64,000 bases of DNA from Candidatus Omnitrophota bacterium (lineage in GTDB: Bacteria; Omnitrophota; Gorgyraeia; Gygaellales; Profunditerraquicolaceae). A program made the translations under genes and the position numbers. Of the stretch, positions 6,196 to 37,146 are shown piece by piece. The stretch's first letter is position 1, and the number at the start of each line of letters is the position of its first letter. The notes beneath the pieces are model-generated. The model was given only the letters and a program-made list of their open reading frames with translations. It ran no database searches and was not told the DNA's origin. The stretch covers positions 28,259-92,258 of the forward strand of contig JAZDOJ010000007.1 in assembly GCA_043798795.1 (NCBI GenBank), given 5' to 3'.

Positions 6196-6224
6196 TTGAC
6201 TATCCCTGAGGCCTGTGTTATATT
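6196..6224 (+). promoter_or_regulatory. Sigma70-like promoter (TTGACT - 17 bp - TATATT) upstream of the OmpA-like gene
   Basis: Near-consensus -35/-10 hexamers with 17-bp spacing read directly from the sequence, about 30 nt upstream of the AAAGGAGAAGG RBS and the ATG at 6257. Confidence 0.55.
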
Positions 6225-6256
6225 GGTTGTGTTCAATTTTAAAAGGAGAAGGTAAG

Positions 6257-6889
6257 ATGAAAAGCAGAATACTGATGTTCTTGGTGGTAGGTTTTCTGGT
6301 CTTGGCTTTATCGGGTTGCACGTTTATTTTCCAAAAGGGCAGACGTTCCGACGTGGAGAAGATCGAAGAGCTTTCGACTCAGTTGGACGAACTCAACCGT
6401 GCGAAGAGGCTTCTTGAAGACAGGCTGAGCCAGGAAATCAAGGATAAGCAGGTTAAGCTGGAGATGTTAGAAAAGGGATTAGTGATTACCGTCGTGGGTG
6501 ACCTTTTGTTTGATTCGGGCAAAGCCAAGGTAAGGTCTGAGGCCTATTCGGTACTGGATAAGGTTTCTACCGTTTTACAGGAGAATCTCGCCAGTTACAA
6601 CGTGGGTATCGAGGGCCACACGGATGACCAACCTATTAAATATTCTGGCTGGAAATCCAACTGGGAATTATCTGCTCATCGGGCCCTCAGTGTTTTAAAT
6701 TATCTGGAGAAGGAAAAAGGCATTGCCGGTTTTCGCCTATCGGCTATAGGTTACGGAGAGCATCATCCCGTTGCGTCCAATGATTCGGCGCAAGGCCGTC
6801 AGCTCAACCGCCGCGTTGAAATCATCGTTTTGCCCAAGCATGAAGGGACGCGCTCCTCGAAAGGATCTGCGGCACCAAAAGTCAAGTAA
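6257..6889 (+). CDS. OmpA/MotB-family peptidoglycan-binding lipoprotein with N-terminal coiled coil
   Basis: Lipobox LALSGC; OmpA-like C-terminal domain (NRRVEIIV) with coiled-coil linker; ATG at 6257 with strong SD, so the track's 6215 start is probably too far upstream. Confidence 0.8.
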   Translation: MKSRILMFLVVGFLVLALSGCTFIFQKGRRSDVEKIEELSTQLDELNRAKRLLEDRLSQEIKDKQVKLEMLEKGLVITVVGDLLFDSGKAKVRSEAYSVLDKVSTVLQENLASYNVGIEGHTDDQPIKYSGWKSNWELSAHRALSVLNYLEKEKGIAGFRLSAIGYGEHHPVASNDSAQGRQLNRRVEIIVLPKHEGTRSSKGSAAPKVK

Positions 6890-6902
6890 CCAGAGGTAGG
6901 GT

Positions 6903-7307
6903 GTGGAGGAAAACGTAAAATCAAGGCTTATTTTGATTCTGGGGGTCATGACGGTTATATTCTTTATCAGCACGGTGAGCTCTTGCGGTAATGCCTACAG
7001 GAATAAAATGGGGCAGGTTAAAGAGACGTTACAGCGCAAGGCTCTGGAGGAAAAACTGAATTTGATATCTCAGGAGAAAGTGAACCAAGAAGAGAATCTG
7101 GCTAGCCTGCAGAAACAGCTGGATGACGAGAAGGCCGGTCATGAGGCGACTCAAAAAGCACTGGTACAGGAGCAGCTCGTTAATCAAAGTTTGAAGGAAG
7201 AGCTGGTTAAAGTTACTAAACTGAAAGAGGCCCTTGAAGAGGATTTGAAAGAAGCCTTGGTTCAAGGCAAAGGGTCTTCGGCCACGAGTACAAAACCAAG
7301 GCAATAG
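6903..7307 (+). CDS. Membrane-anchored or lipoprotein coiled-coil protein; function unknown
   Basis: Hydrophobic N-terminus ending in a VSSC lipobox-like motif, followed by about 100 aa of heptad-rich E/K/L/Q sequence; start codon uncertain (GTG 6903 or ATG 6948). Confidence 0.5.
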   Translation: MEENVKSRLILILGVMTVIFFISTVSSCGNAYRNKMGQVKETLQRKALEEKLNLISQEKVNQEENLASLQKQLDDEKAGHEATQKALVQEQLVNQSLKEELVKVTKLKEALEEDLKEALVQGKGSSATSTKPRQ

Positions 7308-8429: not shown

Positions 8430-10010
8430 ATGTTAAAAGGATATCTTTGTCTCGTCTTGCACGGCCACCTTCCGTTTGTACGTCATCCGGAACACGAAAA
8501 CTTTCTGGAAGAGGATTGGCTTTACGAAGCGATCACGGAGACCTACATTCCGTTGATCTCTTGTTTCGAGAGATTATGCGAAGAGAAAGTGGATTTCCGT
8601 CTCACCATGACGTTAAGCCCTACGCTGATCTCTATGTTGAACGATCCGCTTCTCCAGGAACGCTACCTGAAACATATCAACAGGCTTATTGAATTAGCGC
8701 ATAAAGAGATCGAGAGGACTTCCTGGCAGGCCGCCTTTCAGAAGTTGGCGATTATGTATTTAAATCAGTTCTGTAAGGCGCGGGATACCTTTGAAAGATA
8801 TAACCGTCAATTAGTCAAGGCATTCAAAAATTTTCAGGATCTGGGAAAAATAGAGATTGTGACATGTGCCGCGACGCACGGTTACTTTCCTCTTATGGAT
8901 GTATGCAGGGCGTCTGTCAGGGCCCAGGTCAAGGTAGCTGTCAGCCAGTATGAATCTGTGTTTGGCAGGAAGCCACGGGGGATATGGCTGCCGGAATGCG
9001 GGTATCATCCCGGCCATGATGAGATTTTAAAGGAGGCCGGGATACGCTATTTCTTCAGTGATGCGCATGGGGTTTTACACGGCACCCCCAGGCCCAAATA
9101 CGGTGTATTTGCTCCGGTCTATTGCAAGGGTACGGGTGTCGCCTGTTTTGGTAGAGATCTGGAATCATCGAAACAGGTATGGAGTTCTATCGAAGGGTAT
9201 CCGGGTGATTATAATTACCGGGAATTTTATCGCGATATCGGTTTTGATCTGGAGTTCGATTACATCAGGCCCTACATCCATCCTGACGGTGTCCGGATCA
9301 ATACGGGGATCAAATATTACCGCATCACCGGCAACCAGAGTCCTAAGGAACCCTATGTCCCGGAATGGGCCACAGAGACGGCGGCTTCTCATGCCGGAAA
9401 TTTCATGTTCAATCGCCAAAAGCAGGCCGCGTACCTTTACGACTTTATGCAAAAACCGCCGATGTTCGTCTCTCCTTATGATGCCGAGCTGTTCGGCCAT
9501 TGGTGGTACGAAGGCCCCCAGTGGCTGGATTTTTTGATGAGAAAGATCGTCTTTGACCAGGATGAGTTGCGTCTTATCACTCCTTCGGAATATTTGGCCC
9601 AGAACCCGCGCCACCAGGTGATCACGCCCTCTTTATCCAGCTGGGGGTGGAAGGGATATAGCGAAATGTGGCTTCAGGGTTCCAATGACTGGATTTATCG
9701 GCATCTGCATGTGGCCTCTGACAGAATGACGGAATTAGCGAAAAGCTTCCCTCAGACGGATGGTTTGCTCAGAAGGGCCTTGAACCAGGCCTTGTGTGAG
9801 CTGCTTCTTGCCCAGAGTTCTGATTGGGCGTTCATCATGGGCACAGGAACGCATACGAGTTATGCGGTACGCCGCACCAAAGAACATCTCTTGAGATTCA
9901 GCCGCCTTTACGAAGATATCAAATCCAGCAGCATAGACCCAAACTGGTTATCCGATATCGAATACAAAGATAACCTATTTCCTAAAATAGATTACCGGGT
10001 CCATCAATAA
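8430..10010 (+). CDS. Glycoside hydrolase family 57 1,4-alpha-glucan branching enzyme
   Basis: LCLVLHGHLPFVRHPE N-terminal GH57 motif; 526 aa; Glu/Asp catalytic regions of GH57 present. Confidence 0.8.
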   Translation: MLKGYLCLVLHGHLPFVRHPEHENFLEEDWLYEAITETYIPLISCFERLCEEKVDFRLTMTLSPTLISMLNDPLLQERYLKHINRLIELAHKEIERTSWQAAFQKLAIMYLNQFCKARDTFERYNRQLVKAFKNFQDLGKIEIVTCAATHGYFPLMDVCRASVRAQVKVAVSQYESVFGRKPRGIWLPECGYHPGHDEILKEAGIRYFFSDAHGVLHGTPRPKYGVFAPVYCKGTGVACFGRDLESSKQVWSSIEGYPGDYNYREFYRDIGFDLEFDYIRPYIHPDGVRINTGIKYYRITGNQSPKEPYVPEWATETAASHAGNFMFNRQKQAAYLYDFMQKPPMFVSPYDAELFGHWWYEGPQWLDFLMRKIVFDQDELRLITPSEYLAQNPRHQVITPSLSSWGWKGYSEMWLQGSNDWIYRHLHVASDRMTELAKSFPQTDGLLRRALNQALCELLLAQSSDWAFIMGTGTHTSYAVRRTKEHLLRFSRLYEDIKSSSIDPNWLSDIEYKDNLFPKIDYRVHQ

Positions 10011-10018
10011 AACTCAAT

Positions 10019-10738
10019 ATGATAGACAAAGATAATCTTCCCAGGCATGTCGCTATCATCATGGACGGGAACGGCCGCTGGGCCAAAGAAAAAGGTTTGC
10101 CGCGTACAGCAGGTCACCGGGAAGGTATAAAACGCGTCCGGGAGATCGTTAAAGCGGCGGCAAAACGGGGGATTGAGGTGGTCACTTTTTTTGCTTTTTC
10201 TACAGAAAACTGGAGCCGGCCGAAGAAGGAAGTCGACATGCTGATACGTTCTCTGAAATTTTTTTTAGACCGCGAAGTCAAGGAATTAAACAAGAACAAT
10301 GTTCGGTTGAAGATCGTCGGCCGGCTGGCCCCCATCCCTGAGAGCCTGCTGAAGAAAGTAAGGGAAGCTGAGCACCTGACCCAAGAGAATACCGGCATCA
10401 CCATGGTCTTGGCTTTGAATTACGGTTCAAGGCAGGAGATATTGGATGCTGCTAAGAAATTCGCCGGTCAGGTCTTGTCGCAAGAAGTAACGATAGACGA
10501 TTTAAACGAAGAAAGGTTTAGCCAATACCTTTACACGGCGGGCCTGCCGGACCCGGATCTGTTGATCCGCACCAGCGGCGAGATGCGAATAAGCAATTTT
10601 CTGCTCTGGCAGCTCTCTTATGCCGAGCTTTATTTTCCTAAAAAATATTGGCCTGATTTTAAAGAAGAAGAACTTTCCAGGGCCCTGGAAGCTTACCAGA
10701 AACGAGAAAGAAGATTTGGCGGTATCCATGCAGACTAG
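10019..10738 (+). CDS. uppS: Undecaprenyl-diphosphate synthase (cis-prenyltransferase)
   Basis: HVAIIMDGNGRWA and RTSGEMRISNFLLWQ motifs. Confidence 0.95.
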   Translation: MIDKDNLPRHVAIIMDGNGRWAKEKGLPRTAGHREGIKRVREIVKAAAKRGIEVVTFFAFSTENWSRPKKEVDMLIRSLKFFLDREVKELNKNNVRLKIVGRLAPIPESLLKKVREAEHLTQENTGITMVLALNYGSRQEILDAAKKFAGQVLSQEVTIDDLNEERFSQYLYTAGLPDPDLLIRTSGEMRISNFLLWQLSYAELYFPKKYWPDFKEEELSRALEAYQKRERRFGGIHAD

Positions 10739-11522
10739 ACGAATCGTAAGTTCTGTCCTTCTTATCGCCCTCATCATTGTCGGGATTCAGATCGACTGGC
10801 TCTGCGGTCTCCTGGTCGCTTTATTTATCATCGGGGGGCTTTACGAATTCTTTACCATGCTGGAGCACAAAGGGATCAGCCTGTATAAATATTGCGGGAT
10901 AGGTATCGGCGCTATCATTCCTTTTTCCTTGATCTTTCGTTTTGAACTCACCAAGAGCTGGGAGTTGCTGTTTATCGTTTTGGCATTGTTGTTTCTCATT
11001 CTTATGCAGTTTCGGCGCAGAGAGAACTCAGGGGTGATCGTGGGAATTTCCACGACACTCTTCGGCATCCTCTATGTCTCCTGGTTCTTGAGTTTCCTTA
11101 TCAAGATAAGGTATCTGGCAGGAGGGCTGGGTTTGATCAGCAGCATCCTGTTGATTACCAAATTAGGCGATATCGGGGCGTATCTGGTGGGCTCGCGATT
11201 CGGTAAAAGGCCTCTTATTCCGCGCATCAGTCCCAACAAATCCGTCGAAGGGGCCTTAGGGGGATTGATTTTTAGTATCCTGGGGGCCTTGCTGAGCAGA
11301 GCCTTCTTAGGTTTTGCTTACGGACATCTTTTTTTCCTGGGTCTTTTTTTTGGGCTCTTAAGCCAATTAGGGGATTTGTCCGAGTCACTGATGAAGCGGG
11401 ATTGCCAGGTTAAGGATTCAGGATCGATCTTTCCTGGCTTGGGAGGCGCCTTGGATTCGGTGGACAGTCTCCTGTTTACGGCCCCTGTTTTTTATTTTTA
11501 CATGAGTATCATTTTAAAATGA
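10728..11522 (+). CDS. cdsA: Phosphatidate cytidylyltransferase
   Basis: Polytopic membrane protein with the CDS signature near the C-terminus (KRDxxVKDSGSIFPGHGGxLDRxDS-like); ATG at 10728 overlaps the uppS stop. Confidence 0.85.
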   Translation: MQTRRIVSSVLLIALIIVGIQIDWLCGLLVALFIIGGLYEFFTMLEHKGISLYKYCGIGIGAIIPFSLIFRFELTKSWELLFIVLALLFLILMQFRRRENSGVIVGISTTLFGILYVSWFLSFLIKIRYLAGGLGLISSILLITKLGDIGAYLVGSRFGKRPLIPRISPNKSVEGALGGLIFSILGALLSRAFLGFAYGHLFFLGLFFGLLSQLGDLSESLMKRDCQVKDSGSIFPGLGGALDSVDSLLFTAPVFYFYMSIILK

Positions 11523-12673
11523 CGTCTATCGTGCTGCTTGGCTCAACGGGTTCCATTGGTCAAAACGCGCTGGAAGTGGTGCGGCGGTTTCCGGACAAAT
11601 TCCGGGTGACAGGCTTAAGCACCCATTCCAATGTCGACCTTTTATCCAGGCAGATAAGCGAATTCCATCCTGAGTTTGTTTGCGTCAAAGACGCCTTGGT
11701 TGCGCAAAGTTTAGGGCGCAGGAAAAAGGCTGGACTTAAGATCCTGATAGGAGAGAAAGGGCTTAGTGAGTTGATTGAGAAGTCAAAAGCTAAAAAAGTC
11801 CTGTTGGCCATAAGTGGTTCCGGAGCCCTTCTACCCTTGCTAAAGGCTATTGATGAGGGAAAACAGATAGCCTTGGCGAATAAAGAGGCCATGGTCATGG
11901 CAGGCGCTCTTGTAATGAAAAAAGCCAAGGAGAAGAAAGTTGAGATCATTCCCATCGACAGCGAACAGTCAGCCATCTGGCAGTGTCTGGCTAAAGATAA
12001 ATCCAGCCCTCTGAAAACCATATATCTGACGGCTTCCGGCGGCCCCTTCAGACAGGTAAGCCAAAAAGCCCTCAAAGATATTTCTGTCAGGGAAGTTTTA
12101 AATCATCCCCGCTGGAAGATGGGAAAAAAGATTACGGTGGACTCGGCGACCCTCATGAACAAAGGGCTGGAACTTCTGGAAGCGATGTTCTTGTTTGACA
12201 TGCCTTGTGAGAAAATAAAAATAGTCGTTCATCCGCAAGCCATCGTCCATTCCATGGTTGAGTTCCTTGATGGTGTTATCCTGGCGCAGCTATCGGCGAC
12301 GGATATGCGTATTCCTATACAATACGCTTTGACGCACCCCTTGCGTCTTTCCAGCGGTTTTCCTCGCGTGGATTTCTTTAAACTAAGAGAGCTCTCTTTT
12401 TATAAGCCTGATTTCAAGAAGTTTCCCTGTTTAGGATTAGCCTATCGGGCGGCCCGCACCCTGGGGACCTTGCCGGCTGTCTTGAATGCTGCTAATGAAG
12501 TGTGCGTGGATGCGTTTTTGAGGCAAAGGATCAAATTTATTTCTATTCCCCAAATTATCGAGAAGGTCATGGACAGGCACCGCTCTACCCGGAATCCTGA
12601 TTTAGGCGAAATTTTACACGCGGATCAGTGGGCGAGGCTAGAAGCGGACCGCGTCATCGAAAATATGAATTAG
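11519..12673 (+). CDS. dxr: 1-deoxy-D-xylulose 5-phosphate reductoisomerase
   Basis: IVLLGSTGSIGQNALEVV NADPH-binding N-terminus; 384 aa; ATGA overlap with cdsA. Confidence 0.95.
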   Translation: MTSIVLLGSTGSIGQNALEVVRRFPDKFRVTGLSTHSNVDLLSRQISEFHPEFVCVKDALVAQSLGRRKKAGLKILIGEKGLSELIEKSKAKKVLLAISGSGALLPLLKAIDEGKQIALANKEAMVMAGALVMKKAKEKKVEIIPIDSEQSAIWQCLAKDKSSPLKTIYLTASGGPFRQVSQKALKDISVREVLNHPRWKMGKKITVDSATLMNKGLELLEAMFLFDMPCEKIKIVVHPQAIVHSMVEFLDGVILAQLSATDMRIPIQYALTHPLRLSSGFPRVDFFKLRELSFYKPDFKKFPCLGLAYRAARTLGTLPAVLNAANEVCVDAFLRQRIKFISIPQIIEKVMDRHRSTRNPDLGEILHADQWARLEADRVIENMN

Positions 12674-12679
12674 GTAAAT

Positions 12680-13771
12680 ATGCTGACATTTCTTATCTTT
12701 ATTCTTATCTTAAGCACGGTCATTGTCGTGCACGAATTCGGGCATTTTATGATGGCGAGAAGAATGGGTGTGCGCGTGGAGAAGTTTTCTTTGGGGTTTG
12801 GCCCTGCGCTCCTGAAGAAGAAAAAGGATGAGACAGAATATTGTCTGAGCGCTATTCCCTTGGGGGGCTACGTCAAGCTCGCCGGTGACAATCTGGAAGA
12901 ATATCAGGGGAAGAAGGATGAGTATTTGGCGCAGGCACCGGGCAGGCGGTTTCACGTTATTTTTTTTGGCCCCCTGCTTAATTATATTCTAGGACTGTTG
13001 CTTTTCTGGGTGATATTTGTTGTAGGTTATCCGTCCCTGACGACTCGGGTTGGCGGGCTGTTGGATGATTTCGGCGCCAAGGATGCAGGATTGCAAGTGG
13101 GAGACAAGATTGAAGCCGTAGACGGAAAGGCGGTGGTTCTTTGGGAGGAGCTCCAGAAGATTATTCAGAGCAAGAAAACCGCTGAAAAGGTAAGATTGAC
13201 GGTTCTGCGCGATGATGATAAGTTTGAGCTGGAGGTGCGCATAAGAGAAAAAAGCATGGACGATTCTTTAGGCCAGAAGCGTAGCGTCGGTTTATTGGGT
13301 ATAACGCCAGCTGATGAGATTATTACGGTCAAGCACGGTATCCTGGAATCTTTGGGCCTGGGGATCAGCAAGACTTGGGAGCTGACCGTCATGACCTATA
13401 AGGCATTAGGGTTTATGATCACAGGCAGGATTTCTATGCGCGAGTCGATCACGGGTCTACCCGGCATGTATTTTATAACTTCCAGAGCTGCCCAGATGGG
13501 GGTGGTGGCGATATTACATCTGGTAGCTGTTTTATCTTTGAGTCTGGCCATATTCAACCTTCTGCCCCTGCCGGTCCTTGACGGCGGACATATCCTTTTC
13601 CTGGGGGTCGAAAAAATAAGGGGGAAGGGTTTGAGTTTGAATGTGGATCGTCTGGTCACGCAGGTTGGGACCATGCTGATCCTGACTTTGGCCGTATTTG
13701 TAACCTATAATGACCTGGTGAGGTTTTACGGAGACAAGATAGACAAGGTTTGGGAGTGGTTTGTCAGGTGA
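12680..13771 (+). CDS. rseP: RIP site-2 zinc metalloprotease
   Basis: HEFGHF zinc motif, PDZ domain, LPLPVLDGGH motif; membrane protein. Confidence 0.9.
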   Translation: MLTFLIFILILSTVIVVHEFGHFMMARRMGVRVEKFSLGFGPALLKKKKDETEYCLSAIPLGGYVKLAGDNLEEYQGKKDEYLAQAPGRRFHVIFFGPLLNYILGLLLFWVIFVVGYPSLTTRVGGLLDDFGAKDAGLQVGDKIEAVDGKAVVLWEELQKIIQSKKTAEKVRLTVLRDDDKFELEVRIREKSMDDSLGQKRSVGLLGITPADEIITVKHGILESLGLGISKTWELTVMTYKALGFMITGRISMRESITGLPGMYFITSRAAQMGVVAILHLVAVLSLSLAIFNLLPLPVLDGGHILFLGVEKIRGKGLSLNVDRLVTQVGTMLILTLAVFVTYNDLVRFYGDKIDKVWEWFVR

Positions 13772-13777
13772 CGCCCT

Positions 13778-14845
13778 ATGAAGATCACAAGACGTAAATC
13801 CAGAATCGTGAAGATTGGTTCTGTTTCTATCGGAGGCACGTATCCGGTCGCCATCCAGTCTATGGTTAAGACCAAGACTTCTCGCATTGAGAAAGTGGTG
13901 AGAGAAATACAGGGCCTGGAAAGGGCCGGTTGCGAGATTGTCCGCGTTGCGGTCAAGGATTCATCCGATGCTTTGGGGATCAAAAAAATCAAACAAAGGG
14001 TGAATCTCCCTATTGTAGCGGATATCCATTTTGATTGGCGCTTAGGGATCAAGTCCATAGAGAGCGGAGCAGATAAGATCCGGTTGAATCCGGGCAATAT
14101 CTATAAAGAGACCCAGATCAAAGAAGTGGTGCGTGCCCTGAAGACCCACGGTGTGCCTTTACGTATTGGAGTTAACTCCGGTTCCGTAAGGAATCTCCGG
14201 GACAAAAGATCGAGCATGGCCGATAAATTAGTGACGAGTTGCCTAAATTATGTTAGGATAGTGGAGAAGCTAAAGTTCTTTGATATCGTCCTTTCCCTCA
14301 AGGGTTCTGGTTGTTTAGATACGCTAGAGGCTTACCGCAAGATGGCCAAATGTTGCGATTATCCTTTGCACCTAGGTGTGACGGCCACAGGCCTGAGCCT
14401 TCAGGGAGCTATCAAATCCAGTATCGCCATCGGCTCTCTTTTGTTGGATGGCATCGGCGATACTATCAGAATTTCTTTGACCGAGGAGCCCCGTCAGGAA
14501 GTGAAGGTAGCACAGATCATCCTGGAATCTTTGGGTCTCGGTACCTTCAGGCCGGAAATTATCAGTTGTCCGACCTGCGGCCGCTGCGAGGTGGATTTAG
14601 TTAAGATAGTAAAGGAACTAGAAAATAAATTATCGACTATACACTATAGACCATTGACCCATTCCCTCAAGGTCGCTGTGATGGGTTGCGTGGTGAACGG
14701 CCCTGGGGAGGCGAGGGAGGCGGATATCGGAATAGCCTTTGGTAAGAAAGAAGGGCTCTTGTTTAGAAACGGCAAGCCCATAAGAAAAATCACTTATGCT
14801 CAAGGTGTCACGGCCCTGCTTAAAGAGATGGAGGCAAAATGGTGA
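13778..14845 (+). CDS. ispG: 4-hydroxy-3-methylbut-2-enyl diphosphate synthase (GcpE)
   Basis: 355 aa; TIM-barrel N-terminal region and C-terminal CPTCGRC [4Fe-4S] motif. Confidence 0.95.
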   Translation: MKITRRKSRIVKIGSVSIGGTYPVAIQSMVKTKTSRIEKVVREIQGLERAGCEIVRVAVKDSSDALGIKKIKQRVNLPIVADIHFDWRLGIKSIESGADKIRLNPGNIYKETQIKEVVRALKTHGVPLRIGVNSGSVRNLRDKRSSMADKLVTSCLNYVRIVEKLKFFDIVLSLKGSGCLDTLEAYRKMAKCCDYPLHLGVTATGLSLQGAIKSSIAIGSLLLDGIGDTIRISLTEEPRQEVKVAQIILESLGLGTFRPEIISCPTCGRCEVDLVKIVKELENKLSTIHYRPLTHSLKVAVMGCVVNGPGEAREADIGIAFGKKEGLLFRNGKPIRKITYAQGVTALLKEMEAKW

Positions 14846-16101
14846 ATAAGGACTTTAAAGACAGGATCAGGCGAAAACTTATCGCCGATTATCGGGAAAT
14901 ACTCTCCAAGGAGTCCATTGATTCCAAACAGCTTGAAGGGGCTATTGGTTATATCTGGGATGAGATGATCCGTCGGGAAGGTATAGCGGTTTCGCAAGAA
15001 GAGAGGGCAAAAATAACCACGGATCTCATCCATGAATTCGCAGGGTTCGGGCCCCTGGAGACCCTTATGAAAGATCCTGTTGTCACCGAGATTATGGTCA
15101 ATGGCGCGGACAAGGTTTATGTGGAGCGTAACGGCAAGACCGAACGGACCCCCATTGTTTTTGAAAGTGAGCGGCAGCTTTTGAATCTGGTCGATAAAAT
15201 TCTCACCGCCACCCGCCGTCACGTCGATGAAAGCTATCCCTATACGGAAGTCGCTTTGAAAGACGGCTGCAGGGTCAACATTGTGATTCCACCCCTGGCT
15301 TTAGATGGTCCGATGTTGACCATCAGAAAATTCACAAAAGAGATCAATGCGGTGGAGGATTTGATAAACCTCAAAACCTTGGATAAGCGAATCAGTGATT
15401 TTCTCATTGCCTGCGTAAGAGCAAAGGTCAACATCATATTCTCGGGTGCGACGGGTGCTGGAAAGACTACGAGTCTTAATGTTTTTTCTTCTTATATCAA
15501 CAATGAAGAGCGCGTCATCACCATTGAAGATACGGCAGAACTGCGCCTGGATCAGGAACATGTGGTGCGGATGGAGGTCAAGCAGGCCAATATCGAAGGC
15601 AAGGGCGAGATCGGCATACGAGAGCTTTTTAAGAATTCTTTGCGCATGCGGCCGGACAGGATTATCTTGGGTGAAATCAGGGGTCAGGAAGCCCTGGATT
15701 TGCTTCAGTCCATCTGTTCCGGGCACAACGGCTCGCTTTCGGTCATCCACGCGAGTTCCCCTCAGGATGTCATCCGTCGTATTGAGGTGATGATTTTGAC
15801 TTCAGGGACGCCGATCCTTGAGCAGGTTATTCATCGTCAGATTGCCGCCGCCATCAATCTGATCATCCAACAGGAACAAATGGTGGATGGCTCAAGAAAG
15901 GTCACCCACGTCACTCAAATAAACGGCATGAAAGATGGACAAGTCGTCCTGGAGGATATTTTTCTTTATGCAAGCGAGGAAACAGGCTCAGGTCTTCCAG
16001 AGGTAGGCCGATGGAAGGCCACGGGCATCATCCCGGTGTTTTATCCTCAATTTAAAAAAGCAGGTGTCGATTTGCCAAGAGAGATATTCAATAAGGATTA
16101 G
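14839..16101 (+). CDS. CpaF/TadA-family type II/IV secretion ATPase (Flp-pilus assembly ATPase-like) with no partner genes
   Basis: Walker A IFSGATGAGKTT; Asp box, Walker B and His box regions typical of CpaF/VirB11; start overlaps the ispG stop by 7 nt (ATGGTGA). Confidence 0.8.
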   Translation: MVNKDFKDRIRRKLIADYREILSKESIDSKQLEGAIGYIWDEMIRREGIAVSQEERAKITTDLIHEFAGFGPLETLMKDPVVTEIMVNGADKVYVERNGKTERTPIVFESERQLLNLVDKILTATRRHVDESYPYTEVALKDGCRVNIVIPPLALDGPMLTIRKFTKEINAVEDLINLKTLDKRISDFLIACVRAKVNIIFSGATGAGKTTSLNVFSSYINNEERVITIEDTAELRLDQEHVVRMEVKQANIEGKGEIGIRELFKNSLRMRPDRIILGEIRGQEALDLLQSICSGHNGSLSVIHASSPQDVIRRIEVMILTSGTPILEQVIHRQIAAAINLIIQQEQMVDGSRKVTHVTQINGMKDGQVVLEDIFLYASEETGSGLPEVGRWKATGIIPVFYPQFKKAGVDLPREIFNKD

Positions 16102-16103
16102 AT

Positions 16104-17399
16104 ATGTTTTGGTCTAAGACGCTTATTCCTACGTTAAAGGAAGTTCCTCAGGAAACAGAATCCATTAGTCATCAGCTGCTTTTGCGCTCCGGCTGTGTCC
16201 GGATGCTTATGGCAGGGGTTTACTCCTACTTGCCTTTGGGTTTTAAGGTCTTAAAGAATATCGAAAAGATCATACGCCAAGAATTGAACAAGGCAGGAGC
16301 CAGTGAGCTGTTGCTTCCGGCTTTGCAGCCTATCGAGATCTGGCAGCGCTCAGGCCGCGATCAGGATTTAGGCGCGGTGATGGTCCGTTTCCAGGACAGA
16401 AAAGGCAGAAGCGTGTGTCTGGGCCCGACCCACGAAGAGGTCATCACGGATCTCGTCAAGAACCACGTGTCCAGTTATAGGCAGCTGCCCCTGGTTTTGT
16501 ATCAGATCCAGACGAAATTCCGGGATGAGATCCGGCCGCGTTCCGGGCTCATCAGGTCTTGCGAATTCATCATGAAAGATGCCTATAGTTTTGATGCGGA
16601 TTCCGCAGGCCTGGACAAAAATTATAAAGCGATGTTCGAGGCTTACAAAAAGATATTTAAGAGATGCGGGCTCGAAATTCTGATCACCGAGGCAGACCCC
16701 GGGGTCATGGGGGGTAACGTATCTCATGAATTTATGGTACCCAGCCGCGAGGGAGAGGATATCGTATGGTTGTGTCCAAGTTGTAAGCGTGTCAAAGCGT
16801 TCGGCCCGACGGATATGAACAAGGAGACAGGAGCCCCTGCGACAGGAGAAGAGGCTACAAAACAAACTTGTGACTGTGGCAGCTCCATGAATCCGATCAA
16901 CACCATTGAAGTCGGGCATATCTTTCAGTTGGGCACAAAATACAGCGCAAGCTTCAATGCCAATTTCCTCGATGCCGAGGGAAAGCTTAAGCCCCTCATC
17001 ATGGGTTGTTACGGAATAGGGGTCTCGCGTCTTGTATCCGGCATTGTGGCGCAAAATAACGACAAAGATGGTATCATCTGGCCCAAGGAAGTTTCTCCCT
17101 TTCAAGTGAGTATCCTTGTTTTGAGCGCAGAAGACCGAAAGTTGATGGATACAGCCCTTTCTGTTTATGAAGAGCTAGAAAGGCTGGGGTTTGATGTGCT
17201 AATGGATGACCGGCCGCAAGAAAGTTCGGGCGTCAAATTCAAAGACGCGGACCTGCTGGGGATTCCCCTACAGATCATCATCGGGAAGCAATCCCTGGAG
17301 AAGGAACTTTTAGAATTAAAAATAAGGCACTCTCAAGAAAAGAGGATGAAGCCAAGACCCGAGATCATAAAGGAAATAGAGATGTTTTTTCATGGATAG
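16104..17399 (+). CDS. proS: Prolyl-tRNA synthetase, bacterial type, short form lacking the INS editing domain
   Basis: N-terminus MFWSKTLIPTLKEVPQETESISHQLLLRSG aligns with bacterial ProRS; class II motifs; only 431 aa; Cys-rich insert CPSCKRV...CDCGS where INS would be. Confidence 0.85.
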   Translation: MFWSKTLIPTLKEVPQETESISHQLLLRSGCVRMLMAGVYSYLPLGFKVLKNIEKIIRQELNKAGASELLLPALQPIEIWQRSGRDQDLGAVMVRFQDRKGRSVCLGPTHEEVITDLVKNHVSSYRQLPLVLYQIQTKFRDEIRPRSGLIRSCEFIMKDAYSFDADSAGLDKNYKAMFEAYKKIFKRCGLEILITEADPGVMGGNVSHEFMVPSREGEDIVWLCPSCKRVKAFGPTDMNKETGAPATGEEATKQTCDCGSSMNPINTIEVGHIFQLGTKYSASFNANFLDAEGKLKPLIMGCYGIGVSRLVSGIVAQNNDKDGIIWPKEVSPFQVSILVLSAEDRKLMDTALSVYEELERLGFDVLMDDRPQESSGVKFKDADLLGIPLQIIIGKQSLEKELLELKIRHSQEKRMKPRPEIIKEIEMFFHG

Positions 17400-17859
17400 G
17401 CAGGAACGTATCGAAGAATTAAGAGGCACGATTCAGGAGTTTCTCAGCCGCCAGCATTTTGATCTCGTCGACCTTATTTACAGATTCGAAGGCCGGGATT
17501 TGTTCCTTAGGATTCTGGTGGACAAACCGGAAGGAGGGATCACGCTGGAGGATTGCGCGCATCTTAACAAAGAAATCAGTCTGTTGCTGGATGAAAAAGA
17601 TTTGGTGCAGCAAAGGTTCATCCTGGAGGTTTCCAGCCCAGGCCTGGACAGGCCCTTAAAGACAAAAAATGATTTTTCACGTTGTCTCAACAGGCAAGTC
17701 AAATTCTTTCTGAACGATGCGGCCCAGGGCCGATGGGAGTGGGAGGGTCTTATTCTTGAAGTCGAAGAGGATCGCGTCATCATTGGGGCGAAAGACACGA
17801 GGGTGACCTTGCCTTTGTCAAAGGTTGCCAAGGCAAAACAGATTATAGAAAATATTTAG
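17392..17859 (+). CDS. rimP: Ribosome maturation factor RimP
   Basis: 155 aa; conserved position immediately upstream of nusA; RimP N- and C-domain pattern. Confidence 0.8.
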   Translation: MDRQERIEELRGTIQEFLSRQHFDLVDLIYRFEGRDLFLRILVDKPEGGITLEDCAHLNKEISLLLDEKDLVQQRFILEVSSPGLDRPLKTKNDFSRCLNRQVKFFLNDAAQGRWEWEGLILEVEEDRVIIGAKDTRVTLPLSKVAKAKQIIENI

Positions 17860-17873
17860 AAATTGGAGTCAAA

Positions 17874-19085
17874 ATGAGTCAAGAATTATTAGCTATCATT
17901 GAGCAGATTGAAAGAGAAAAAGGCATCAAGAAGGAAGTTTTGATCAGTGCTGTGGAAAGCGCGCTGCTGAGTGCCGCCAAAAAAGTCATTGATGTTAAGC
18001 CTGATGAAGAACTTAAAGTCGAACTGGATACCAGTTCGGGGAAAGTCAAGGTCTTTAAAAACGAGGAAGAGGTTCGTTCTGTTGATTTCGGGCGGATAGC
18101 GGCTTCGACAGCTAGGCAGGTGATTATCCAGAAGATGCGCGAGGCCGAAAAGGATGTCGTTTTTAATGAATTCCAGGGCCGGGTCACGGAGATTGTCAGC
18201 GGTACGGTTTACCGATTTGAAAAAGGCAATATCATCGTGGATCTTCTGGGCAAGGCCGAAGGCCTGCTCCTTAAACGGGAACAGTCTCCTCGGGAAGAAT
18301 TCAAGCAGGGCCAACGGATCAGGGCTTATGTTGTTGAAGTCAAAAAAGATACCAAGGGGCCGCAGATCATGCTCTCCCGGGCCCATCCGAACCTGGTGAA
18401 AAAACTGTTTGAATTAGAGGTTCCGGAGATTTACGAAGGGATCGTCGAGATCAAGTCCATTTCCCGTCAGGCCGGAGAACGCACCAAGATTGCCGTTTGG
18501 TCTAAAAACGAAAAAGTGGATTCCGTAGGGGCCTGTGTGGGCGTGCGGGGAAACCGGGTCAGAAATATCGTGAATGAGCTGCAGGGAGAGAAGATCGATA
18601 TCGTGCGTTTTAGCGAAGATATCAGGGAATACATAAAAGCCGCCCTGTCCCCCGCAGAGGTCTCGGAGATAAAATTGGAAAAAGAGAATCTTAAGGCCAC
18701 GGTCATTGTGGACGATAGCCAGTTATCGCTGTCGATCGGTAAACACGGACAGAACGTGAGACTGGCTTCCCGACTGATTGGTTGGGAACTGGATATTCGA
18801 ACCAAGACAGCCCTTTTGGAAGCCGAGAAAGCCAAGAAAGCCGAGCAAGAGAAAGAGGAGGTTGCACCTTTGCCAAAAACAGAGAAGAAAAAGAAGAAAG
18901 AGGCCGTTTCCCTCCAACAGCTTTCAGGCATAGGAGAGAAGACTCTGGAAAACCTGAAGGCAGCCGGGATAAAATCCATCGAAGATCTTTTGAAGGCAGG
19001 CACTCCTGGCTTGACCAAGATAAAAGGCATTGGCGATAAGAAAGCGCAAAAATTAATCGAAGAAGCCAAGAATCTCAAGGCTTAA
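17874..19085 (+). CDS. nusA: Transcription termination/antitermination factor NusA
   Basis: N-terminal domain, S1 and tandem KH domains (GxxGxNVR), C-terminal HhH acidic repeat. Confidence 0.95.
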   Translation: MSQELLAIIEQIEREKGIKKEVLISAVESALLSAAKKVIDVKPDEELKVELDTSSGKVKVFKNEEEVRSVDFGRIAASTARQVIIQKMREAEKDVVFNEFQGRVTEIVSGTVYRFEKGNIIVDLLGKAEGLLLKREQSPREEFKQGQRIRAYVVEVKKDTKGPQIMLSRAHPNLVKKLFELEVPEIYEGIVEIKSISRQAGERTKIAVWSKNEKVDSVGACVGVRGNRVRNIVNELQGEKIDIVRFSEDIREYIKAALSPAEVSEIKLEKENLKATVIVDDSQLSLSIGKHGQNVRLASRLIGWELDIRTKTALLEAEKAKKAEQEKEEVAPLPKTEKKKKKEAVSLQQLSGIGEKTLENLKAAGIKSIEDLLKAGTPGLTKIKGIGDKKAQKLIEEAKNLKA

Positions 19086-19103
19086 GATAAAGGAATTTGA
19101 CTC

Positions 19104-21197
19104 ATGGCGAAATTAAAGGAAAAGAAAGTGGAGCACAAGAAGGTCAAGGTCGTAACGCAAAAGACCAAAAAAACGGTTGGCAATAAGCCCGTTAGACTTA
19201 AGGTTTCTTTAAAGCCCAAAGAGAAAGCCGCCCTTAAGCCTAAAAAACCCCTTTCTGTCAAACCAAAAATTGTCAGAAAAAAAGCAAAGATAGCTGCAGT
19301 TTCTCCTGCGCCTCCAATTTTGACCCAGGAGCCTCAGGTCAAGAAGGTCGTGTCGCCACCTCCACCTCCACCTCCACCTGCGCCTGAGCCGCGCGTGGCT
19401 CCCATCACAAAACCGGCTCCTCAAGAAGTCGCTGTTACCCCCGCCAAAGAGCTTGAGCTTGAATTTCCCATCACCCTAAAGGATTTAGCAGTTAAATTAC
19501 AGGAGAAGCCTTCCACATTGATAAAGATTCTTATGGATATGAGGATCATGGTAGGTATCAATCAGACCCTCGAGGAAGCCGTGGTCAGCAAGATCTGTGA
19601 AAAATATCAGTATGCGATCAAGAAGGCCCCTGACCAGGAGGAATTGGCCTTACGCCTGCATAAGGAGACGGATTCGCCTGAAAATCTAAAACCCCGCTTT
19701 CCTATTGTGACTCTTATGGGCCATGTCGATCATGGTAAAACGTCTTTATTGGACGCTATCAGGAAATCCAAGGTTGTCGATTCAGAGCATGGGGGGATCA
19801 CCCAGCATATCGGCGCTTACAAAGTGATTCTTCCTCACGGCGAGATAACGTTCCTGGACACACCTGGCCATGAGGCTTTTACGGCGATGCGCGCCCGCGG
19901 AGCCAGCATTACAGATATTGTCGTACTGGTGGTGGCTGCGGATGACGGCATGATGCCACAGACCGAGGAGGCTATTGATCATGCGCGTGCGGCTGGCGTA
20001 CCCATCATTGTGGCTGTCAATAAGATGGATAAGCCCCAGGCAGATATCGACCGCGTGAAGAAACAGCTTTCTAAGCTTGAGCTGGCAGCAGAGGACTGGG
20101 GAGGAAAAACGATCACGGTCCCAGTGTCGGCAAAGACAGGCCAGGGAATGGATGACCTCTTAGAGATGATTCTTTTGGAAGCCCAGATGTTGGAGCTTAA
20201 GGCTAATCCCGAACGCCCGGCATCTGGCGTGGTGATAGAGTCGAAAATGGCCAAAGGTAGAGGCCCCGTAGTCACTTTGCTCATTCATAGTGGTACGTTG
20301 CATCTAAATGAAAATATCATCGTCGGCACCTTTTACGGAAAAATAAGAGCCATGTTTAACGATAGAGGTCATTCCGTGACCAGCGTTGGCCCTTCTTCTC
20401 CCGTTGAGGTCCTGGGGATCTCCGGGATTCCTGCGGCCGGAGAGCCGTTTTTTGTGATTGAAGATGAAAAAGAGGCCAAGGGATTGGCTGCCGCACGCAT
20501 GGAAAAATTGAAGCTTCGCCAGATGAAATCCGTTAAAAGAGTGAGCCTTGAGGATCTCCATGCAGAAATAGAGGCCGGTAAGATTAAGGAATTGAAATTG
20601 ATCATCAAGGCAGATGTGCAAGGGTCTTTGGAGGCGATCAAGGACACCTTGAATAAAATCAATGCTTCTGAGATCAAACTCGATTTTATTCATATGGGGG
20701 TAGGCAATATCAATGCGTCGGATGCCATATTGGCTGTTGCCTCCAATGCTCTTATCCTGGGGTTCAATATCGCACAGGATGAAGGCTCCAAAGAGATCGC
20801 GGCTAAGGAAGGGCTTGACATCAGGATGTATAACATTATCTATGAGCTGGCTAATGATATCAAGGCAGCTTTGGAAGGCATGCTTGAGCCTAAGATCAAG
20901 AAGGTCTTTGTGGGCAGGGCAGAAATCAGGAAGGTGCTCAAGCTTTCAAGAGCCGGTACGGTAGCCGGCTGTTTTGTAGCGAAAGGTAAAATCAGCCGTA
21001 ACAACCTCATTCACCTGGTCAGAAACGACGAACTTGTCTTCGAGGGAAAACTATCTTCTTTAAAACGCTTCAAGGATGATGTCCGGGAGGTCAGCGAAGG
21101 TTTTGAATGCGGCTTAACCTTGGCCGGATTCGATGATGTGCATGAAGGGGACCTCGTTGAGGCGTTTGAGATAGAGAAAATAGCACGCAAGCTATGA
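19104..21197 (+). CDS. infB: Translation initiation factor IF-2
   Basis: G-domain motifs [24 protein letters not shown]; 697 aa; lysine-rich N-terminus with a poly-proline tract. Confidence 0.95.
19356..19379 (+). repeat. Hexanucleotide tandem repeat (CCACCT)x4 encoding the poly-Pro run in IF-2
   Basis: ccacctccacctccacctccacct read directly; encodes PPPPPPPP. Confidence 0.8.
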
Positions 21198-29821: not shown

Positions 29822-30194
29822 AAGAAGCGTATGCCTGGGGCAAAATGGGGAAGATTTAGCTGTTGGCTTCCTGAAAGAAAACGGTTATAAGATTCTGCAT
29901 AGAAATTTTAAAACCAGGTTGGGAGAGATAGATATCATCGGCATGGATCAGGATACACTTTGTTTCATCGAAGTCAAAACTAGGAACTCTCTCAGGTGCG
30001 GCGAGCCGCAAGAGGCTATTTCTTCTTTTAAGCAGAGGCAGATGTCCAAAGCAGCGCTCCTGTTTCTTAAAGGACATCATCTTCTGGATGCTAAAGCCAG
30101 GTTCGATGTGGTTTCCGTTATCTGTTTAGATAAAACGCCAACATTCGATTTGATCAAGAATGCTTTTGAACTGGAGGCAAGCTATGTTATCTGA
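29814..30194 (+). CDS. yraN: YraN-family (UPF0102) endonuclease
   Basis: GEDLAVGFLKENGYKILHRNFKTRLGEIDIIGMDQDTLCFIEVKTR signature. Confidence 0.85.
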   Translation: MSKRSVCLGQNGEDLAVGFLKENGYKILHRNFKTRLGEIDIIGMDQDTLCFIEVKTRNSLRCGEPQEAISSFKQRQMSKAALLFLKGHHLLDAKARFDVVSVICLDKTPTFDLIKNAFELEASYVI

Positions 30195-31878
30195 TATCAA
30201 AATTGCCCAGAAAGCAAAAATAGTCCCGATAGAGAATATCGCCAAGAAATTAAAAATCGATAAACGATTCCTTGTGCCTTACGGCCGGCATATGGCCAAG
30301 ATCGATTTGGGTATTCTGGATAAAATTAAGAATAGGAAATCAGGAAAATATGTTTTGGTAACCGCTATAACACCCACGCCTTTAGGAGAAGGCAAGACCG
30401 TCACGACCATAGGTCTCTCCATGGCTTTGAATCGATTAGGTCGGTTAACCTCAACCTGCATCAGGCAGCCGTCGCTGGGGCCTGTCTTTGGTATAAAAGG
30501 AGGGGCAGCTGGCGGTGGGTATTCCCAGGTTTTGCCCATGGAGAATTTTAATCTTCATTTTACCGGAGACGTGCATGCGGTTGGCCTGGCGCATAATCTG
30601 GCTGCTGCTTTTTTGGATAATTCTCTCTTCAAAGGAAACAAGCTCGGGATCGATCCCGAGCAGATAACCTGGAGACGGGTGGTAGATGTCAGCGACCGCT
30701 CTTTAAGGAATGTCAAGATCGGTTTGGGCTCAAAAGACGACGGGGTTCCCCGGGACAGCGGCTTTGATATAACGGTGGCTTCCGAAATCATGGCTATTTT
30801 GGCCTTGAGTTCCGGTTTAACGGACTTGCGTAAACGTCTGGGGCAAATCGTCGTGGCCCATACCCAGGACGGCAGACTCGTCACCTGTGAAGACCTGCAA
30901 GTGGCCGGGGCCATGGCTGTTCTCATGAAAGAGGCCATAAAACCTAATTTGATTCAGACGATCGAAAATACCCCTTGTTTTGTGCACGCCGGCCCTTTTG
31001 CGAATATCGCCCATGGCAATAACTCCATATTAGAGGACCGCATAGCTCTGAGGTTATCCGAGTATGTGGTGACAGAAGCCGGCTTTGGAGCGGATTGCGG
31101 GGCAGAGAAATTCTTTGATATAAAATGTCGCGCAAGCGGCCTGGCGCCTCATGCCGTAGCCATGGTCTGTTCTGTCAGGGCTTTAAAAGCGCATAGCGGC
31201 CGATTTAAGGTTGTCGCGGGTAAACCTTTAGATCCAGCTTTAACGCAAGAGAACTTAGATGCTATAGAGGAAGGAGTTTGTAACCTGCAGAAACAGATTG
31301 AGAATGTTTCTCTCTTTGGTGTACCGGTGGTGGTTGCCGTCAATCGATTTACCTCTGATACAAAAAGAGAAATAGAATTTGTAAGGAAAAAAGCCCTGGA
31401 GTTCGGAGCCTTTGACTGTTGTGTCAGCGAAGTATGGGCCAAGGGTTCCTCAGGAGGTCTGGAGCTGGCTAAGAGCATCATGGCCGCAGCCAAAGAGAAG
31501 AGCCGTTTTAAATTTCTATATCCGTTAGATATTTCCATAAAGGAGAAGATCGAAACCATCGCGACAAAAATATACGGGGCCAAGAATGTCGAATATGCAG
31601 GCCTGGCTGAGGAGAAAATTAAGGTTTACACAGAGCAGGGTTATGATAGACTACCTATCTGTATGGCCAAAACACACCTTTCTTTATCGCATGACCCTCA
31701 CCTTAAAGGAAGGCCTCGAGATTTTACGCTTCCCATCAGAGATATCCGGGCATCCATCGGTGCAGGATTTTTATATCCTCTTTGTGGGGAAATGAAAACC
31801 ATGCCGGCGCTGCCCAGCCACCCTGCAGGAGAGAAGATTGATATCGACAAGAGTGGGAATATTGTGGGTTTATCATGA
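30184..31878 (+). CDS. fhs: Formate--tetrahydrofolate ligase
   Basis: MLSDIKIAQKAKI start, PTPLGEGKTVTTIGL P-loop, 560+ aa typical of FTHFS. Confidence 0.95.
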   Translation: MLSDIKIAQKAKIVPIENIAKKLKIDKRFLVPYGRHMAKIDLGILDKIKNRKSGKYVLVTAITPTPLGEGKTVTTIGLSMALNRLGRLTSTCIRQPSLGPVFGIKGGAAGGGYSQVLPMENFNLHFTGDVHAVGLAHNLAAAFLDNSLFKGNKLGIDPEQITWRRVVDVSDRSLRNVKIGLGSKDDGVPRDSGFDITVASEIMAILALSSGLTDLRKRLGQIVVAHTQDGRLVTCEDLQVAGAMAVLMKEAIKPNLIQTIENTPCFVHAGPFANIAHGNNSILEDRIALRLSEYVVTEAGFGADCGAEKFFDIKCRASGLAPHAVAMVCSVRALKAHSGRFKVVAGKPLDPALTQENLDAIEEGVCNLQKQIENVSLFGVPVVVAVNRFTSDTKREIEFVRKKALEFGAFDCCVSEVWAKGSSGGLELAKSIMAAAKEKSRFKFLYPLDISIKEKIETIATKIYGAKNVEYAGLAEEKIKVYTEQGYDRLPICMAKTHLSLSHDPHLKGRPRDFTLPIRDIRASIGAGFLYPLCGEMKTMPALPSHPAGEKIDIDKSGNIVGLS

Positions 31879-32441
31879 TCATGTATAAAGACGGTTCCAT
31901 CAGGAAATATTTAGACGATTTGGCTGCTAAGCTAAGCGCTCCCGGCGGAGGTTCTGCGGCGGCGTTAACGGCAGGGTTGGGAGCCAGTCTTATCAGTATG
32001 GTGGTGAACTTTACTTTAGGTAAACCCAAGTACGCTCCCTTTGAGAGGGATTTAAAAAAGATCCTAAAAAAATCGGAAGAGCTGCGTGAAAAATTCTTAG
32101 ACCTCGTTGATTTAGACGTAGTCGCCTATAAATCCAAGAACATAAGAGACGCCCTGGATATCCCCTTTATGGTGTGCCGCCTTTGTTTTGAAGCCATAAA
32201 GTTATGCCCGGGCCTCATTAAGAAAGGCAATATTTACTTGATAAGCGACGTCATGGTGGCTGGGATTCTACTGGAATCGGCTTTTGCTTCGGCATGTGCC
32301 AACGTCGAGATAAACCTGAAATCATTAGATGATAAGTCCTTAACCAAATCCGTAAGAAAAGAATTAGAGAAGAAAGCCAGATGGATGAAAAAGATCCGAA
32401 GAGACACGGAGGTTAAAGTTGGCAAAATTATTAGAGGGTAA
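31875..32441 (+). CDS. fchA: Methenyltetrahydrofolate cyclohydrolase (FTCD C-terminal, cyclodeaminase-family domain)
   Basis: LSAPGGGSAAALTAGLGASL motif typical of the FTCD_C / FchA family; ATGA overlap with fhs. Confidence 0.8.
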   Translation: MIMYKDGSIRKYLDDLAAKLSAPGGGSAAALTAGLGASLISMVVNFTLGKPKYAPFERDLKKILKKSEELREKFLDLVDLDVVAYKSKNIRDALDIPFMVCRLCFEAIKLCPGLIKKGNIYLISDVMVAGILLESAFASACANVEINLKSLDDKSLTKSVRKELEKKARWMKKIRRDTEVKVGKIIRG

Positions 32442-34759: not shown

Positions 34760-34775
34760 ATAGAAGGGGAGCCTT

Positions 34776-36683: not shown

Positions 36684-36690
36684 GGGGCCC

Positions 36691-37146
36691 ATGAAAAATC
36701 TCTATTACGATGTCAAGAAATGCTTAGGATGCAAATCCTGCGAGATAGCCTGTAGCCTCGCTCATTCCGTGATACAGGACCTGTTCAAGGCCGTCAAGGA
36801 AAGCAAATTGACTTTACCCAGAAAGAAAGTCGCAACGTCCAAGGGTAAGAATTATCCTGTGAGCTGCCGTCATTGCCAGGAGCCTAAGTGCGTGGATGCC
36901 TGTATGGCCTGCGCTTTAAGTTTTGATCAGGAGAAGGGCCTTGTCTTACACGACGAGGAGCGTTGCGTGGGTTGCTGGATGTGCGTGATGGTCTGTCCCT
37001 ATGGCGCCATTCGGCCGAGCCTTAAGGATAAAATTCCTATACGCTGCGATAAATGCAAGGATAAGGACGAACCGGCTTGCGTCAAGGCCTGCCCGACGGG
37101 CGCCATCATCTGGCAGGAGGCCCAAGTTTTCAAAGGAGTCAAATGA
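36691..37146 (+). CDS. cooF: CooF-like 4Fe-4S ferredoxin
   Basis: Multiple CxxCxxCxxxCP ferredoxin motifs in 151 aa. Confidence 0.85.
   Translation: MKNLYYDVKKCLGCKSCEIACSLAHSVIQDLFKAVKESKLTLPRKKVATSKGKNYPVSCRHCQEPKCVDACMACALSFDQEKGLVLHDEERCVGCWMCVMVCPYGAIRPSLKDKIPIRCDKCKDKDEPACVKACPTGAIIWQEAQVFKGVK

Follow-up and report, generated by a model that had tools for sequence, protein, structure and literature searches.

A CpaF/TadA-type motor ATPase gene held in the ispG-proS housekeeping block of an Omnitrophota lineage

Introduction

Pilus and secretion ATPases of the T2SSE superfamily are almost always encoded beside the platform they drive. What does such a motor do when its gene is embedded among genes for isoprenoid synthesis and translation? 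The question is raised by 64,000 nucleotides (nt) of a Candidatus Omnitrophota genome (GenBank assembly GCA_043798795.1, contig JAZDOJ010000007.1, positions 28,259 to 92,258; the whole stretch is called the window below), in which a CpaF/TadA-type ATPase gene, here named cpaF1, lies between ispG and proS. The Omnitrophota are ultra-small, probably predatory bacteria. In an initial annotation made from the letters of the window, the placement was called atypical, and a moonlighting or regulatory role or a pilus system with scattered platform genes was suggested to explain it. Full-text searches found no paper that places a CpaF gene between ispG and proS or that deals with TadA/CpaF in Omnitrophota. 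We asked whether this arrangement is peculiar to one genome, whether the gene encodes a working motor, and which machine, if any, it might serve.

Results

Loci for comparison were gathered by exact-protein look-up, a scan of GTDB species genomes, and a scan of JGI metagenomes. This gave 33 Omnitrophota loci of the cpaF1 clade, not all of which represent independent species. In 33/33, cpaF1 lies on the same strand as its neighbors between rseP/ispG and proS/rimP, and the shared gene order is uppS-cdsA-dxr-rseP-(ispG)-cpaF1-proS-rimP-nusA-infB. Both cpaF1 junctions are tight in every locus, with overlaps of 4 to 20 nt or gaps that are mostly shorter than 30 nt; where ispG and cpaF1 meet, the genes of relatives overlap by 4, 8, or 20 nt or stand 1 to 28 nt apart. 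Three variants were seen. Zapsychrales-type loci (L071, L088, L089, L148, and L162) have no ispG at this place and read rseP-cpaF1-proS, a single locus (L036) has the order ispG-cpaF1-rimP, and several Gygaellales carry a paralog, cpaF2, between proS and rimP. Because ispG is missing from the Zapsychrales-type loci, the constant feature is cpaF1 directly upstream of proS and not the ispG-cpaF1 junction. The initial annotation had proposed looking for the ispG-cpaF-proS order in relatives: retention of cpaF1 in the block holds throughout, but the exact trio does not, ispG being absent from the Zapsychrales-type loci and proS not adjacent in L036.

The loci span at least three orders in the taxonomy of PMC10066038 Table S1, namely, Gygaellales (family Profunditerraquicolaceae), Zapsychrales, and Duberdicusellales, and the named relatives belong to the class Velamenicoccia (GTDB Koll11, renamed Gorgyraeia in R232). 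Among the best 120 matches, the closest homologs of cpaF1 are 59 to 89% identical and are annotated as Candidatus Omnitrophota or Omnitrophica; the V. archaeovorus cpaF1 is not among these matches. By comparison, neither ispG nor proS was found next to the CpaF gene in any of ∼139 CpaF loci from other phyla. The word atypical is therefore apt with respect to other phyla but not within the lineage itself, where the placement is the rule. We conclude that the arrangement is fixed and ancient and is not a peculiarity of one genome, and synteny at this locus provides an easy marker of the lineage. It is probably not universal in the phylum, since in the portion of the KEGG Orthology (KO) list available for genome 58 (order B26-G9, 94% complete), ispG and proS are listed and cpaF is not.

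Some individual loci deserve mention. Two that are labeled Planctomycetales (L006 and L009) show the full Omnitrophota gene order with a cpaF1 that is 57 to 58% identical, and their labels are probably wrong. A locus from a complete chromosome (L012) has no neighbors related to pili.

When the loci are compared with the window, protein identity changes nearly in parallel for cpaF1, ispG, and proS (for example, 87/89/87, 66/63/65, 53/43/54, and 45/44/50%, in that order of genes). The ratio of nonsynonymous to synonymous substitution rates (dN/dS) between the window and its closest relative, L001, is 0.127 for cpaF1, 0.131 for ispG, and 0.126 for proS. Divergence in parallel with the neighbors and a dN/dS like theirs indicate that cpaF1 is an old, vertically inherited, and strongly constrained member of the block. 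Neighbor-joining (NJ) trees place the cpaF1 sequences in one clade that takes in just one outsider, from a metagenome-assembled genome (MAG) labeled Verrucomicrobiia (L058).

The L058 contig encodes three T2SSE ATPases within 10 kb (L058:2307-11224). The one at 9992 to 11224 is the sequence that groups inside the Omnitrophota cpaF1 clade, which could reflect horizontal transfer or a mis-binned contig. A 348-amino-acid (aa) membrane protein encoded beside this cpaF1-like gene was considered as a platform and rejected, as its N terminus looks cyclase-like and it gives no T2SSF signal.

An artifact or a recent event (misassembly, fresh insertion of a mobile gene, or pseudogene decay) has only the unusual context in its favor. 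These junctions are repeated in 33 independent contigs (JGI, ENA, and NCBI assemblies), among them contigs as long as 1.17 Mb and 1.82 Mb. Recurrence in so many independent assemblies excludes misassembly, which the initial annotation had raised as a possibility and which was not borne out. The intact frame and motifs described below, the dN/dS of 0.127, and the divergence parallel to the neighbors likewise exclude recent insertion and decay, and we assign this explanation a negligible probability.

The cpaF1 gene and its principal features, all on the forward strand, are as follows.

14839 to 16101, forward: cpaF1, gene for a 420-aa CpaF/TadA-family (T2SSE) hexameric-motor ATPase (open reading frame [ORF], Pfam, PDB, AlphaFold2 model)
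14830 to 14834, forward: GGAGG, putative Shine-Dalgarno sequence of cpaF1, within the 3' end of ispG (read from the sequence)
14839 to 14845, forward: 7-nt overlap ATGGTGA, cpaF1 start inside the last ispG codons and stop (read from the sequence)
15445 to 15471, forward: Walker A/P-loop GATGAGKTT, residues 203 to 211 (sequence, alignment)
15508 to 15543, forward: Asp box ERVITIEDTAEL, residues 224 to 235 (alignment)
15649 to 15684, forward: Walker B region RPDRIILGEIRG, residues 271 to 282, with RPDRIILGE (alignment)
15718 to 15753, forward: His box SGHNGSLSVIHA, residues 294 to 305 (alignment)

The ORF begins with ATG, in the context GGAGGCAAAATGGTGAAT, and ends with TAG at 16099 to 16101. 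The ispG frame ends in AAA TGG TGA, with the stop at 14843 to 14845, so the overlap of the cpaF1 ATG with the ispG stop was read correctly in the initial annotation. The same is true of the downstream junction, where the cpaF1 TAG is followed by a 2-nt spacer (AT) and the proS ATG at 16104. The claim that the gene encodes a complete CpaF/TadA-type ATPase with four motifs was confirmed by the ORF, the Pfam T2SSE (PF00437) match of 182 bits, and the motif alignment. All four motifs are kept in the 14 cpaF1 and the 64 canonical CpaF sequences compared, and cpaF1 also has an intact TIRKF arginine motif. Comparison with the 64 canonical sequences gave 92 positions conserved in both groups and only 8 that are fixed differently in the cpaF1 clade. 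The gene is thus intact, with no sign of decay or catalytic loss, and its product is predicted from these motifs to be active.

The best solved relatives in a phmmer search of PDB are the Caulobacter TadA/CpaF structures 8rkd, 8rjf, and 9e24 (E = 3e−95, residues 26 to 410), and identity to Caulobacter CpaF is 40% over 386 aligned residues. An AlphaFold2 model built on 23 homologs (mean pLDDT of 76) returned the same three structures, 8rjf, 9e24, and 8rkd, as its top Foldseek matches over the full length of the protein (419 to 423 columns, TM scores of 0.62 to 0.73). FlaI/archaeal GspE, VirB11, PilT, and PilB were far weaker matches, and the archaeal Holliday-junction ATPase PINA was also among the weak ones. 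All NCBIfam equivalog models scored below their cutoffs. The best, TIGR03819 (TadA family conjugal transfer-associated ATPase), reached 290 bits versus 373, and there is no helicase neighbor. The VirB11 and TrbB models gave 198 versus 250 and 179 versus 305 bits with no type IV secretion system genes in the window, FlaI gave 187 versus 550 bits with no archaellum context, and pilT_fam, the model for PilT/PilU, gave 51 bits versus a cutoff of 319. Of the three types that the initial annotation had proposed to distinguish, CpaF is favored by the PDB and fold matches, while VirB11 and FlaI fall below cutoffs. Therefore, we conclude that cpaF1 is a member of the CpaF/TadA family by sequence and fold, although it lacks the linkage to tadB/tadC and tadZ by which members are usually recognized.

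Partner genes in the window were sought by comparing every sizeable ORF with Pfam and all ORFs of ≥60 aa with a TadB/TadC hidden Markov model (HMM) built from 80 sequences. The 64 kb yielded no gene for T2SSF, CpaE/TadZ, RcpC, a secretin, a prepilin peptidase, or a pilin. The initial statement that no such genes lie within 20 kb on either side of cpaF1 therefore holds and extends to the whole window. Likewise, no tad platform, TadZ, secretin, or pilin gene was found within 8 to 10 kb of cpaF1 in the 33 related loci. The TadB/TadC HMM had 0 matches in these 34 sources, whereas the same HMM found T2SSF genes in 59/70 non-Omnitrophota CpaF loci from the genome scan and 45/69 from the metagenome scan (104/139 together). 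The difference in T2SSF linkage between cpaF1 and other lineages is significant (Fisher P = 6e−13, genome-scan set of 59/70), and many of the comparison loci that lack T2SSF lie on contigs broken off at cpaF. Canonical loci usually have two T2SSF genes next to cpaF and a CpaE/TadZ-like gene upstream.

The block around cpaF1 in the window consists of the following genes, and their identification by Pfam and NCBIfam confirms the housekeeping neighbors named in the initial annotation, with uppS, cdsA, dxr, rseP, and ispG upstream and proS downstream.

10019 to 13771, forward: uppS-cdsA-dxr-rseP, upstream part of the block (Pfam/NCBIfam; same order in relatives)
13778 to 14845, forward: ispG, 4-hydroxy-3-methylbut-2-enyl diphosphate synthase, upstream neighbor (Pfam GcpE, 439 bits; NCBIfam NF001540, 435 bits, above the cutoff)
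16104 to 17399, forward: proS, 431-aa prolyl-tRNA synthetase (ProRS) without the INS domain (Pfam/NCBIfam, sequence)
17392 to 21197, forward: rimP-nusA-infB, downstream part of the block (Pfam/NCBIfam)

The window and the relatives share this same-strand, tightly packed order of uppS-cdsA-dxr-rseP-proS...rimP-nusA-infB, and a scan for promoters and terminators between the block genes found nothing notable. The 431-aa proS product matches the bacterial ProRS model in two stretches, which indicates that the INS editing domain is missing, and the relatives have similarly short proteins of 408 to 431 aa.

A second paralog, cpaF2, is 42% identical to cpaF1 and forms a large conserved Omnitrophota family of its own; PF27713 (UCP018868) appears in its precomputed annotations. 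In several Gygaellales it is found between proS and rimP, a position where it is absent from the window and its closest relatives.

L006:12530-13759: cpaF2 between proS and rimP
L008:12527-13792: cpaF2 between proS and rimP
L086:10001-11248: cpaF2 between proS and rimP
L087:10001-11230: cpaF2 between proS and rimP
L097 to L100: cpaF2 between proS and rimP

On a 1.19-Mb contig (L085:10001-12619), a cpaF2-like ATPase gene and a divergent T2SSE ATPase gene with a degenerate His box lie directly upstream of dnaX-recR. T2SSF genes were not found near cpaF2 in any case (within 10 kb for L085).

Type IVa pilus (T4aP) loci and Tad or type II secretion system (T2SS)-like loci are commonly encoded by Omnitrophota (PMC10066038; 10.1101/2023.11.21.568195). 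TadBC/RcpA were reported in 74/116 Velamenicoccia species, and V. archaeovorus was said to have a "complete" Tad locus, in a survey that covered TadB, TadC, RcpA, TadZ, and Flp and not the ATPase (PMC10066038). The same survey reported Tad complexes as absent from the families DTHP01, Fen-1317, and 4484-171 and from some Profunditerraquicolaceae, calls that rest on MAGs that are ∼92% complete and on HMM thresholds. The ispG-cpaF1-proS arrangement is nevertheless carried by a member of 4484-171 (L092, GCA_003558915.1). For a second member of this family, genome 231 (GCA_023819315.1, 92.7% complete), the portion of the PMC10066038 KO table available lists K02283 (cpaF), gspE, and pilB/C/D/M/T but no cpaB, cpaC, cpaE, tadB, tadC, gspD, or gspF. 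The corresponding portion for genome 221 lists cpaB, cpaC, and cpaF together.

A conserved Omnitrophota secretion locus next to giant genes has been described by West-Roberts et al. (preprint 10.1101/2023.11.21.568195); it contains gspD, gspE, gspF, rcpC, a Rotamase_2 peptidyl-prolyl isomerase (PPIase) gene, and small genes with class III signal peptides. We found a locus that matches this description on a putative Omnitrophota contig.

L168:3474-16454: Tad/Flp-like locus, putative Omnitrophota

Its order is Rotamase_2 PPIase, RcpC, secretin with TonB_C, a CpaE::CpaF fusion, a second ATPase, a transposase, and 8 to 9 Flp-type genes whose small products have N termini of the form KAQSTxEYAxL. 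The fusion protein (721 aa) is 49% identical to cpaF1, and the second ATPase (355 aa) is 41% identical and, in a rough NJ tree, falls beside the cpaF1 clade. The contig shares its metagenome with two Omnitrophota contigs, and its UvrD is only 30% identical to the UvrD of the window, a value too low to inform on its taxonomy. With gspE in the published locus and two ATPases in L168, Tad-like loci bring their own motors.

Otherwise, the window carries ordinary genes for core metabolism and information processing. It holds ∼57 credible genes, all on the forward strand and tightly packed, and no tRNA genes in 64 kb. A Wood-Ljungdahl cluster at 30160 to 40581 encodes formate-tetrahydrofolate ligase, cyclohydrolase/dehydrogenase, methylenetetrahydrofolate reductase, carbon monoxide dehydrogenase, and the acetyl coenzyme A synthase beta subunit, which fits reports of acetogenic metabolism in Omnitrophota. 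Upstream of the uppS block lies a conserved pair (6215 to 7307) that consists of an OmpA-family protein gene and a lipoprotein-like coiled-coil ORF of ∼130 aa without a Pfam match; L001, L003, L004, L088 to L091, and L093 have it at the same place. Between this pair and uppS, the window and several relatives encode DUF4912 and a GH57 branching enzyme.

Discussion

The reading that we favor, with about even confidence, is that cpaF1 acts in trans, as an additional motor, on the T2SSF-type platform of a type IV filament machinery encoded elsewhere in the genome. Its gene would have been fixed between rseP/ispG and proS in an ancestor of the Velamenicoccia/Koll11 Omnitrophota, and its product is predicted by the motifs to be an active CpaF/TadA-type hexameric motor. 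The tight junctions suggest that ispG, cpaF1, and proS are transcribed as one unit with coupled translation, in which case cpaF1 would be made constitutively at housekeeping levels. Its target may be the machinery of the Tad/Flp-like loci, which encode RcpC, a secretin, the CpaE::CpaF fusion, and another ATPase, or perhaps a T4aP system. As an unlinked extra motor, cpaF1 would be analogous to pilT/pilU, which are unlinked from pilB/pilC. A constitutive supply would suit a lineage that is presumed to rely on pili at all times to attach to prey or hosts.

Several observations weigh against this reading. No platform partner was found for cpaF1 in the 33 loci at 8 to 10 kb or in the 64-kb window, and since the Tad-like loci supply ATPases themselves, the need for yet another motor is not obvious. 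Family 4484-171 keeps cpaF1 (L092) and is reported to be without Tad complexes (PMC10066038), as the available portion of the genome 231 KO list also suggests. Pilus genes do not usually sit in a housekeeping operon and evolve at the pace of core enzymes. Finally, the trees of T2SSE ATPases are rough and were made by NJ only.

The same observations bear on what else cpaF1 could be. If cpaF1, together with cpaF2 where present, had left pilus biology for a core Omnitrophota-specific function that is independent of Tad, such as the handling or export of giant surface proteins, envelope biogenesis, or nucleic acid translocation, one would understand its fixed position in the block (33/33), a dN/dS equal to those of ispG and proS, its retention in a family reported to be Tad-less (PMC10066038), and the presence of separate ATPases in the Tad-like loci. 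The placement of cpaF2 in housekeeping contexts (proS-rimP, and dnaX-recR in L085) points the same way, and PINA, one of the weak matches, is a precedent for such a change within the superfamily. The sequence itself gives no signal of a changed function, however, with 40% identity to CpaF in an alignment along the whole of cpaF1, all motifs, and only 8 clade-fixed substitutions, and all known CpaF/TadA members work on T2SSF platforms. A platform may also still be available, since the T4aP protein PilC is listed even in the accessible part of the KO list of the Tad-less genome 231, and the absence of Tad depends on MAG completeness of ∼92% and HMM thresholds. We regard repurposing as the main rival reading, possible but rather unlikely. 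In its boldest form, cpaF1 and cpaF2 would not be pilus motors at all but a lineage-defining, essential housekeeping motor that was exapted and works without a TadB/TadC platform; its task in these ultra-small predators or parasites might be to export or handle giant surface proteins, or it might belong to a machine for prey attack or for the envelope. This form is speculative, and we think it somewhat doubtful.

In the scattered pilus system of the initial annotation, a canonical Tad/Flp pilus would have its tadB, tadC, rcpA, and flp genes dispersed elsewhere with no ATPase gene of their own, and cpaF1 would be its only or principal motor. This would agree with the identity of cpaF1 as a true CpaF-type ATPase, with TadBC/RcpA in 74/116 Velamenicoccia species (PMC10066038), and with the cpaB, cpaC, and cpaF entries found together in the available KO list for genome 221. 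It is made less likely by the fact that the Tad-like loci described carry their own ATPases, with gspE/CpaF-type genes in the published Omnitrophota loci (10.1101/2023.11.21.568195) and two in L168. The "complete" Tad locus of V. archaeovorus and the presence of cpaF1 where TadBC/RcpA are reported to be absent (PMC10066038) are further arguments against it, and we consider it improbable. Of the two suggestions made initially, the scattered system is thus disfavored in its sole-motor version, both because Tad-like loci own ATPases and because cpaF1 occurs in 4484-171, while the evidence agrees better with a motor that is additional and works in trans, or with one that was repurposed.

A motor locked lineage-wide into a core isoprenoid and translation operon represents an uncoupling of a pilus motor from its machine. 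If cpaF1 acts in trans, as we favor, a constitutive supply of pilus motor would bear on prey attachment by uncultured, probably predatory nanobacteria. Otherwise, a CpaF-type ATPase would have gained a new core function. Which platform, if any, cpaF1 serves is a question for a cultured representative and complete genomes.

Among known systems, the Omnitrophota Tad/T2SS-like loci (West-Roberts et al. and the putative Omnitrophota L168) encode the nearest relatives of cpaF1 that we found outside housekeeping contexts (49 and 41% identity). L168-type loci bring a PPIase, RcpC, a secretin, the fusion, the second ATPase, and pilins, whereas cpaF1 stands alone among housekeeping genes. The TIGR03819, VirB11, and FlaI proteins are, like cpaF1, hexameric ATPases of the T2SSE superfamily, but the scores are below cutoffs and the contexts differ. 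The pilT and pilU genes are typically unlinked from the assembly operon, are often adjacent paralog pairs, and act in trans on a distant platform. This unlinked arrangement of the type IVa retraction and accessory ATPases, which belong to the same superfamily, would be paralleled by cpaF1 and cpaF2, although cpaF1 lies outside the PilT family by sequence and a retraction role would be an analogy only. The closest counterparts are the Tad/Flp (type IVc) pilus motors, Caulobacter crescentus CpaF and Aggregatibacter TadA, with which cpaF1 shares the domain order, the full-length fold, and the motifs, including TIRKF. The Caulobacter protein, reported to drive both extension and retraction, has 501 aa and an N-terminal extension that cpaF1 does not have. 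Canonical cpaF/tadA genes lie in a tad operon beside tadB/tadC and cpaE/tadZ, whereas cpaF1 never does and evolves like the core genes around it.

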